A stretch of 64,000 bases of DNA from Eledone cirrhosa (Eukaryota): positions 50,654,001-50,718,000 of the forward strand of contig OZ024747.1 of NCBI GenBank assembly GCA_964016885.1, written 5' to 3'. Positions 15,108 to 15,905 of this stretch are shown here, one piece after another. A program made the translations under genes and the position numbers. The notes below the pieces were generated by a model. The model was not told the DNA's origin. It did no database searches and was given only the letters and a program-made list of their open reading frames with translations. Position 1 is the stretch's first letter. Every line of letters begins with the position of its first letter.

Positions 15108-15316
15108 ATATATATATATTATATATATATATATATATATAAATACAATATCGGAGAAAGCTTTTCAGCGATACTCCGGCCAAATTCCAACTCACTCAAC
15201 AAACATTAGGAAATAAGTGATTATATTCCTAATTAAGCGTTCGGGGTGCTAACTAAAGGTATTGCGTGGAAAATTGGCTGTATTATTTCATATGAGACAT
15301 ATCGAACATATCTCTT

Positions 15317-15443
15317 CCCAGACGGACGTCTCGTTTCATTATCGGATTCCTACAATTTGGGTGAAATTATACCAATTTATGTAGGCGCTTGTATACCATC
15401 AATAGATATATATTCAAGTGGGCTCCTATAATTCATCAGTGGG
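15317..15443 (-). ncRNA. Canonical-core type I hammerhead ribozyme with ~85-nt branched stem II insertion
   Basis: CCCA-CUGAUGA-AUUAU..AUAAU-GAAACG-AGACGUC-CGUC^UGGG; all conserved core nucleotides and three stems present. Confidence 0.88.
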
Positions 15444-15537
15444 TGCCCCAATATTACTAATATTGATAATCTAATCAACATCAGTATTTAGCGATAATCA
15501 TCATCAGTGCCTGAGGTATCTGTCAGGTTGCTAGTCC

Positions 15538-15566
<29 letters not shown>

Positions 15567-15568
<2 letters not shown>

Positions 15569-15905
15569 AGTTAAGGCATGAGTTTGGGTCCAGTGAATTT
15601 TCTAATATATGCCATCTCTCTATGCTGCAGAGTCCACAACTTTTATAAACACTGAAGTAGGGTTTACATGTATCTGCTATCTTCCAGCTGGTATTGTAAC
15701 CAGTAGAATCCTATTTCAGTCTTCATATATGGCTGGAGAGCAGTCATGTACATTTTCTCCTGTTACCGAATTGACGTCGTGTGGTTGTCGTAGCGTTCTT
15801 TAAACTATCGTTCCGTAAGACCGATGTACAGCTAAAGATTGGCGATGCGGTCTGGGTTTGACTATTTTACTGTTGCATCGTAGACACTGGTCTCTGTCTT
15901 ACGAG
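15567..15905 (-). pseudogene. Second PLE GIY-YIG endonuclease relic
   Basis: Manual translation: SVYDATVK...LYIGLTER*FKERYDNHTTSIR...YNTSWKIADTCKPY...CGLCSIERWHILE...CLNS; lies upstream of the HHR on the same strand. Confidence 0.88.

Follow-up and report, generated by a model that had tools for sequence, protein, structure and literature searches.

Within the window (the whole 64-kb stretch of DNA that was analysed), the minus strand carries a repeated unit enclosed between two (TA)n tracts, which we call family A and which holds a type I hammerhead motif with a large stem II. The decayed end of a PLE endonuclease lies upstream of it on the same strand, a remnant of a second PLE family abuts its 3' side, and a near-full member of that second family is found elsewhere in the window (Table 1).

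Table 1. Position, strand and supporting evidence of the features found in the window
Feature	Position	Strand	Basis
Family A repeat unit, ~390 nt, (TA)n on both sides	15142..15537	-	sequence boundaries and contig depth
3'-terminal (TA)n of the unit, common to the abutting remnant of the second PLE family	15110..15141	.	
(TA)n that separates the unit from the endonuclease relic and coincides with the depth cliff	15538..15565	.	
Type I hammerhead, intact core, 127 nt	15317..15443	-	descriptor match and folding
Stem II domain, 95 nt: closing helix of 5+3 bp here, leading into a predicted three-way junction	15338..15432	-	folding
Hairpin A of the insert (predicted; not named in the earlier note)	15388..15418	-	folding; 3-nt deletion of run X6 in the terminal loop
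Hairpin B of the insert (predicted)	15349..15385	-	folding; one more pair with the family letter at 15386
Stem III ACG/CGU, 3 bp, 7-nt loop with 6-nt palindrome; predicted dimerisation site	15322..15334	-	folding
Hairpin of 9 bp (predicted) immediately downstream of the cut	15294..15314	-	folding and family letters
Decayed Hydra-like PLE GIY-YIG endonuclease relic	15566..15900	-	profile match; low depth
Near-full Hydra-like PLE, RT + GIY-YIG	6993-10130; ORF about 9870-8090	-	
Type I hammerhead-like motif of the second PLE, stem II span 56 nt	7102-7009 and 9943-10036	- and +	
3'-end remnants of the second PLE family (four, fold-back), located in (TA)n	4102-4319, 14921-15109, 46439-46570, 58942-59137		

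On the minus strand, stem I of the hammerhead is formed by CCCA (15443-15440) and UGGG (15320-15317), the core box CUGAUGA occupies 15439-15433, the outer arm of stem II pairs AUUAU (15432-15428) with AUAAU (15342-15338), its inner arm pairs GGA (15426-15424) with UCC (15346-15344), and the GAAA box is found at 15337-15334. Loop III contains the palindrome GACGUC (15330-15325), and the GUC at 15323-15321 places the predicted cut between 15321 and 15320. These elements (stems I-III, both boxes, palindrome, GUC and cut) had been proposed in an earlier note on this DNA, and all of them were confirmed. The family A motif possesses the full core (CUGANGA, GAAA and a UH cleavage triplet) together with the complementarity for three helices around it, helix I being open in the predicted fold. 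The pair 10.1-11.1 is A-U in this copy and not the usual conserved (not universal) G10.1-C11.1; among 22 related hammerheads it is G-C in 16, G-U in 3, A-U in 1 and unpaired in 2. Judged from its sequence, the motif is a real type I hammerhead with a canonical core, for which self-cleavage is predicted. As candidates for a tertiary contact or pseudoknot between helices I and II, the 5' flank (15451-15447) has a 5-nt match to the loop of hairpin B (15361-15357), next to some 4-nt matches; they show no covariation and may be at chance level.

Two partial motifs were observed nearby. A second CUGAUGA (15507-15470, minus strand), 68 nt upstream of the real core, is accompanied by a similar AUUAU and an imperfect helix and has no GAAA; it may stem from an old partial duplication or represent a decoy fold. 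On the plus strand, at 14610-14660, a short hairpin separates CUGAUGA from GAAA, with a near-palindrome and (TA)n downstream and no pairing for stem I; this is possibly a decayed compact hammerhead.

The 5-bp arms of stem II enclose 85 nt, and the stem is about four times as long as is usual for hammerheads. The earlier note had described this insert as ~85 nt with one hairpin, which our folding bore out (15385-15349); since a second hairpin (15418-15388) is also predicted, stem II would end in a second three-way junction. When the stem II domain was folded alone, most pairs of hairpin A reached probabilities of 0.63-0.99. The folding energy of 15290-15470 is not unusual (z = -1.26 versus shuffles), and the stem II domain itself is no more stable than its shuffles (z = -1.16). 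The hammerhead helices attain probabilities of ~0.5 if the motif is folded with few flanking bases; in contexts of 180-770 nt, stem I of this copy falls to <=0.004 and stem II to <=0.12. Stem III has a pair probability of ~0.01 as a monomer, and for two copies a self-duplex through the palindromic loop III is predicted at -14.7 kcal/mol. This copy is decayed and likely a poor cutter.

Both strands of the window were searched with a type I descriptor that allowed stem II up to 220 nt, and the only match returned was the motif at 15443-15317. After dinucleotide shuffling in blocks of 1 kb, any match was found in 6 of 150 windows, and a match as strict as the family A motif (stem II of at least 5 bp, stem III of at least 3 bp, C at the cut) in none. 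The motif had no match among the Rfam hammerhead families, either at the gathering score or at E <= 10, and the site was absent from the 14 matches (E <= 5) of a covariance model built from 22 compact PLE hammerheads; the expectation, voiced in the earlier note, that length-restricted searches would miss this fold proved correct. Rfam matches to miRNA families at 15000-15121 were rejected (all far below the gathering score) and are attributed to the fold-back PLE remnant.

The distribution of the unit was assessed by aligning contigs of four public runs (X1, X4, X6 and X9, the latter three from organisms other than that of X1) to 15142-15985 at a minimum of 80% identity. The numbers of aligned contigs (1145 for X1, 9 for X4, 5 for X6 and 1 for X9) and the summed depth of X1 (about 19,000-222,000 over 15142-15518, to be read as summed contig depth and not as copy number) show that family A is very high-copy in one organism. 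With the same caveat on summed depth, the ratio of the unit to the unique contig of the relic suggests thousands of copies. Depth climbs towards the 3' end of the unit, from a flat 29,000-36,000 over 15345-15489 (i.e. through the insert) to 61,000-118,000 over 15229-15344 and >215,000 at 15171-15228, and the termini run into (TA)n, as do variant 3' ends in 6 and 36 contigs; three family A contigs end in (TA) 9 nt past the predicted cut. The stretch 15529-15572 is outside the depth coverage, so the 5' boundary of family A is not within the measured stretch. None of the 10 joints listed for X1 skips the insert, and this, together with the flat depth through it, indicates that the long stem II is a family trait and rules out an insert private to this copy. 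A loose end at 15187 is common to X4 and X9. It points to a second possible family A terminus, ~45 nt before the end, a pattern that PLE tails would be expected to show.

Eleven variant rows are listed within the unit, two of them inside the hammerhead, and both replace a mismatch present in this copy by a Watson-Crick pair: at 15343 the whole depth (29,932/29,932) carries a letter that pairs with A15427 and yields a 9-bp stem II, and at 15386 almost all of it (23,948/23,958) carries a letter that pairs with A15348. At 15307 the family letter changes a G-U into an A-U pair in the hairpin that follows the cut. Diverged loose ends carry G15426 -> A (X6) and C15344 -> U (X4), the two sides of one predicted pair, which hints at a compensatory change, its sides coming from different contigs and different organisms. 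The X6 loose end is also altered at the free core position 7, a 3-nt deletion in run X6 falls in the loop of hairpin A, and the X4 loose end has a stem III that is four bases shorter and still palindromic. This comparison covers the variants and loose ends listed (56 further variant rows, 104 loose ends and 1148 pieces fall outside it); among them the core of young family copies appears intact at the level of sequence, and invariance across all copies is not claimed. The earlier note had named a lack of conservation among copies as evidence against its fold; what we found is a family-wide insert and family letters that improve its pairing.

Compared over 263 letters with a copy in another organism, the unit shows 9 differences and a 3-nt gap. 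A 22-nt family A pattern recovered 0 stretches from metagenome and viral contigs, and no ORF linked to family A was found in the window, the public-run contigs or the metagenome and viral contigs. At the DNA level the unit does not match the second PLE family. In the window it occurs as a single unit and no tandem arrangement was found; ARAGORN, which is insensitive to SINE heads, reported no tRNA there. Identity with the published Hydra or Naiad consensi of cephalopods was rejected by comparison of 3' ends and by motif search: five short motifs located no family-A-like place in the cephalopod Naiad consensi (line breaks can hide matches, and the 3' end of Naiad_Ovul lies outside the comparison), and the 3' end of Naiad_Obim differs from family A by eye.

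A GIY-YIG relic upstream on the same strand had been pointed out in the earlier note, and a profile of Hydra-like PLE proteins recognised it in two frames (i-E 5e-10 and 1e-9), separated by a frameshift near 15760 and interrupted by 7 stops (4 before and 3 after the frameshift). The Hydra clade is defined by a GIY-YIG domain without CCHH cysteines, CxxC before a conserved E and CxH after a conserved N (PMC8557442). The relic shares the first feature (no CCHH cysteines between the two motifs), keeps CxxC, the conserved E and the conserved N, and stops at (TA)n before CxH; it is also inserted in (TA)n, as are Hydra-clade PLEs. The CxCX5C linker, DKT motif and upstream RT present in its best homologues are not retained. 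Pfam assigned neither the relic pieces nor 4 full homologues to a family, and a word-based search with the second frame gave no matches. By eye, this frame agrees with Hydra-1_Obim (PMC8557442 File S7) in ~25 of 57 residues without gaps, whereas that element has a compact hammerhead with an 8-nt loop 2 and, by eye, a 3' end unlike family A. This resemblance, the density of microsatellites and a SINE-like repeat known from octopus point to a cephalopod as the probable host.

For comparison, 95 Hydra-like loci were gathered from collections of metagenomes and genomes: the best 80 of 532 stretches contributed 78 distinct loci, and a further 22 contributed 17. This set is biased to close relatives of the query; no related locus was found in viral contigs. 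The endonuclease end is present in 91 of them, and 45 of these have a hammerhead within 1.5 kb (39 distinct sequences, stem II spans of 10-25 nt). A relaxed pass added 14 among the other 46 (spans of 10-31 nt, one also parsed at 53 nt) and left 32 loci without a hammerhead; 22 of the 46 had <300 nt downstream. Two hammerheads lie within 250 nt past the endonuclease end in locus L028, and three within 1000 nt in L088. Some of the hammerhead-bearing loci (L079, L080, L082, L086, L088 and others of L079-L095) come from bacterial MAG or symbiont assemblies and are likely animal host DNA in the bins.

Family A resembles the PLE pseudo-LTR hammerheads, including those of the Hydra clade (Cervera & De la Pena 2014, PMC4209133; Craig et al. 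2021, PMC8557442), as these sources describe them: type I, with a canonical core, a 4-bp stem I, a long helix II and a weak palindromic helix III suited to dimers, mostly as single dispersed copies in (TA)n context. It departs from them in its stem II, which is not compact as in published PLE descriptors (95 nt and predicted to be branched, versus 10-31 nt in 59 related loci), in its stem III region (13 nt versus 8-10 nt) and in the A-U at 10.1-11.1. In File S2 of PMC8557442, loop 2 of Hydra hammerheads measures 3-10 nt in 26 rows, and the longest loop 2 of the table is 35 nt. The enlarged loops 2 of spike moss PLE-X1 (35 and 29 nt), marked in that file as deviating from the canonical structure, are a further likeness, but they are under half the family A size and belong to an endonuclease-less, rDNA-targeting plant element. 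Like the non-LTR retrozymes described in PMC7229834 and bioRxiv 10.64898/2026.07.22.740005, family A is a non-coding, AT-rich, high-copy and PLE-related type I hammerhead repeat of ~300-400 nt; unlike theirs, which are tandem and have circular RNAs, it is known from DNA, and the unit in this window stands alone between microsatellites. The discontinuous Clec2 hammerheads, as summarised in PMC2950038, are likewise natural, have large insertions and escape pattern searches, whereas the search described there allowed for insertions in loop 1 or 3 and the motifs lie in mammalian 3' UTRs, and the family A insert sits in stem II of a transposon repeat.

The second PLE of the window, whose ORF has frameshifts near 9085, 8738 and 8180, possesses a 3' UTR of ~1.1 kb and an inverted copy of its 3' end (9855-10130) with a ~78-nt tail absent from the other end. 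This inverted copy ties the hammerhead-like motif to the ORF. The motif has a GUC site and a palindromic loop III, and both of its copies show the non-canonical core CUGAGAA. Among this family's four fold-back remnants, three have their turn within loop II of the hammerhead and the fourth 7 nt past the predicted cut; these turns, together with the family A ends near the cut, may reflect reverse-transcription stops or cleaved templates (the numbers are small). Beyond (TA)n on either side of the second PLE lies another repeat in inverted arrangement (6241-6861 and 10171-10564), likely a further (TA)n-targeting element, and 16715-21882 is a tandem array of ~69 copies of a 75-nt unit (95% alike).

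We consider that the locus is best explained (with a probability of about 0.62) as an intact type I hammerhead with a family-wide 95-nt stem II, in a repeated unit; this unit probably represents the 3' end of a PLE that targets (TA)n, and its RNA would likely cut itself as a dimer. Two family A RNA copies would pair through the palindromic loop III and form stem III, cleavage after C15321 would trim the precursor RNA, and the branched stem II domain would sit outside the core and be at least tolerated. Extensions of loop II are generally tolerated by hammerheads. The parent of family A would be a Hydra-clade element and most genomic copies would be 5'-truncated ends, the depth that rises towards 3' and the termini that run into (TA)n being explained as for truncated PLEs (PMC8557442). 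The unit is likely a PLE 3' end (pseudo-LTR) or a non-autonomous derivative of one. PLE hammerheads with a palindromic helix III are described as cleaving weakly and as dimers (PMC4209133; dimer cleavage also in PMC6765202), one PLE hammerhead is reported to need protein and to be dispensable for insertion in vitro (PMC11167929), and 8 of the 9 Xenopus retrozyme dimers tested in bioRxiv 10.64898/2026.07.22.740005 did not cleave.

The main rivals of this explanation, which partly overlap, concern the nature of the unit and its activity. It is possible, with less in its favour than the PLE 3' end, that the unit is a fixed-length non-autonomous element of ~390 nt, a SINE-like, dispersed and monomeric relative of non-LTR retrozymes moved in trans by PLE proteins. 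The depth is flat from 15345 to about 15490, one organism has a large excess over the three others, the size is within the retrozyme range (PMC7229834), and retrozymes were proposed to derive from PLE pseudo-LTRs (bioRxiv 10.64898/2026.07.22.740005). However, the unit is single here and not tandem, and the cliff at 15530 would be just as likely if this copy ended there by truncation while others continued into their own, longer 3' UTR; that of the second family runs on for ~1.1 kb, and the measured stretch does not include the 5' boundary.

We are somewhat more doubtful that the hammerhead is vestigial, in which case the family would have spread regardless of cleavage and the insert would be a passenger that weakened or abolished activity. 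Such a history would agree with the weak folding in context and the A-U pair at 10.1-11.1, with the non-canonical core that the second family's long hammerhead shows in each of its two full copies, with the spread of Naiad PLEs without canonical hammerheads (as given in PMC8557442) and with hammerhead mutants that, in PMC11167929, left insertion in vitro unaffected. It is countered by the young family, in which the core is intact and the stems are better paired than in this copy, and by the diverged variants listed, which keep core, pairing and palindrome.

The earlier note assigned the hammerhead to the adjacent endonuclease. If so, it would be the relic's own 3' end, the (TA)n would be a later expansion within one element and the locus may resemble the source of the family, which we regard as improbable. 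Both lie on the same strand, the distance from the relic end to the core (~125 nt) is within the 68-330 nt of 43 out of 45 related loci, and a short stretch past the (TA)n weakly resembles, by eye, the last ORF codons. Against this, X1 depth over the relic is 6-108 (its unique contig, without differences, has a depth of 7.6), and the cliff at 15530, by the (TA)n, amounts to a drop of ~300-fold, with 0 joints dropped. At high identity the relic has a single copy, with paralogues that are ~80% alike (19-29 letters different in 114-140, only those of at least 80% identity being aligned), compared with 9 letters in 263 between the unit and its copy in another organism. Seven stops in 110 codons at 3.5% divergence have P ~1e-4 under a generous model in which the nonsense rate is doubled. 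A C-terminal profile that finds the second family's motif (i-E 0.009) gave no continuation of the relic motif past the (TA)n, and on its 3' side the unit is abutted by a remnant of another family. The low copy number, the stops and frameshift, and the separation by (TA)n indicate that the relic is likely an older, separate insertion that was itself hit at the same (TA)n spot, and the neighbourhood with the hammerhead is probably coincidental nesting: PLEs tend to insert beside each other (PMC6765202) and Hydra elements prefer (TA)n (PMC8557442). What stands of the earlier reading is the canonical-core hammerhead, the long and likely branched stem II, the PLE context and the invisibility to searches, and what falls, given the cliff, the far greater decay of the relic and the silent C-terminal profile, is ownership by the relic.

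That the motif is a chance assembly of hammerhead-like pieces in AT-rich repeat DNA, as the non-significant folding z-scores and the relaxed matches in 6/150 shuffled windows might be taken to mean, is highly improbable and largely refuted by the 0/150 strict matches, the family letters that restore pairs and the same design in the second PLE of the window.

Turning back to the PLE-derived unit with its family-wide stem II, we regard the family A hammerhead as a genuine structural variant, at the level of the family, of the known pairing between ribozymes and retroelements. Our literature searches, in sources that were partly accessible, returned no report of family A or of any PLE hammerhead with a branched stem II, which does not establish absence from print. 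If the insert is only a tolerated passenger, the finding is a useful annotation correction and little more. A more far-reaching and unlikely alternative is a PLE lineage in which stem II serves as an accessory domain that gates cleavage or binds RT-EN, with one unit at thousands of copies, trans-cleavage in dimers, and such forms perhaps present in some of the PLEs described as being without hammerheads (Naiads with 'half cores'). If true, this stem II would be a natural counterpart of engineered allosteric hammerheads, and long-stem-II forms would escape all length-limited screens. Hammerhead censuses use length-limited descriptors or models, and two such searches missed the family A motif; a young and very abundant family with a 95-nt stem II implies that a whole class can be overlooked. 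The thousands of natural variants would ease covariation analysis and bench comparison of the role of the insert, and the overlooked long forms bear on why some PLE clades seem to be without hammerheads.
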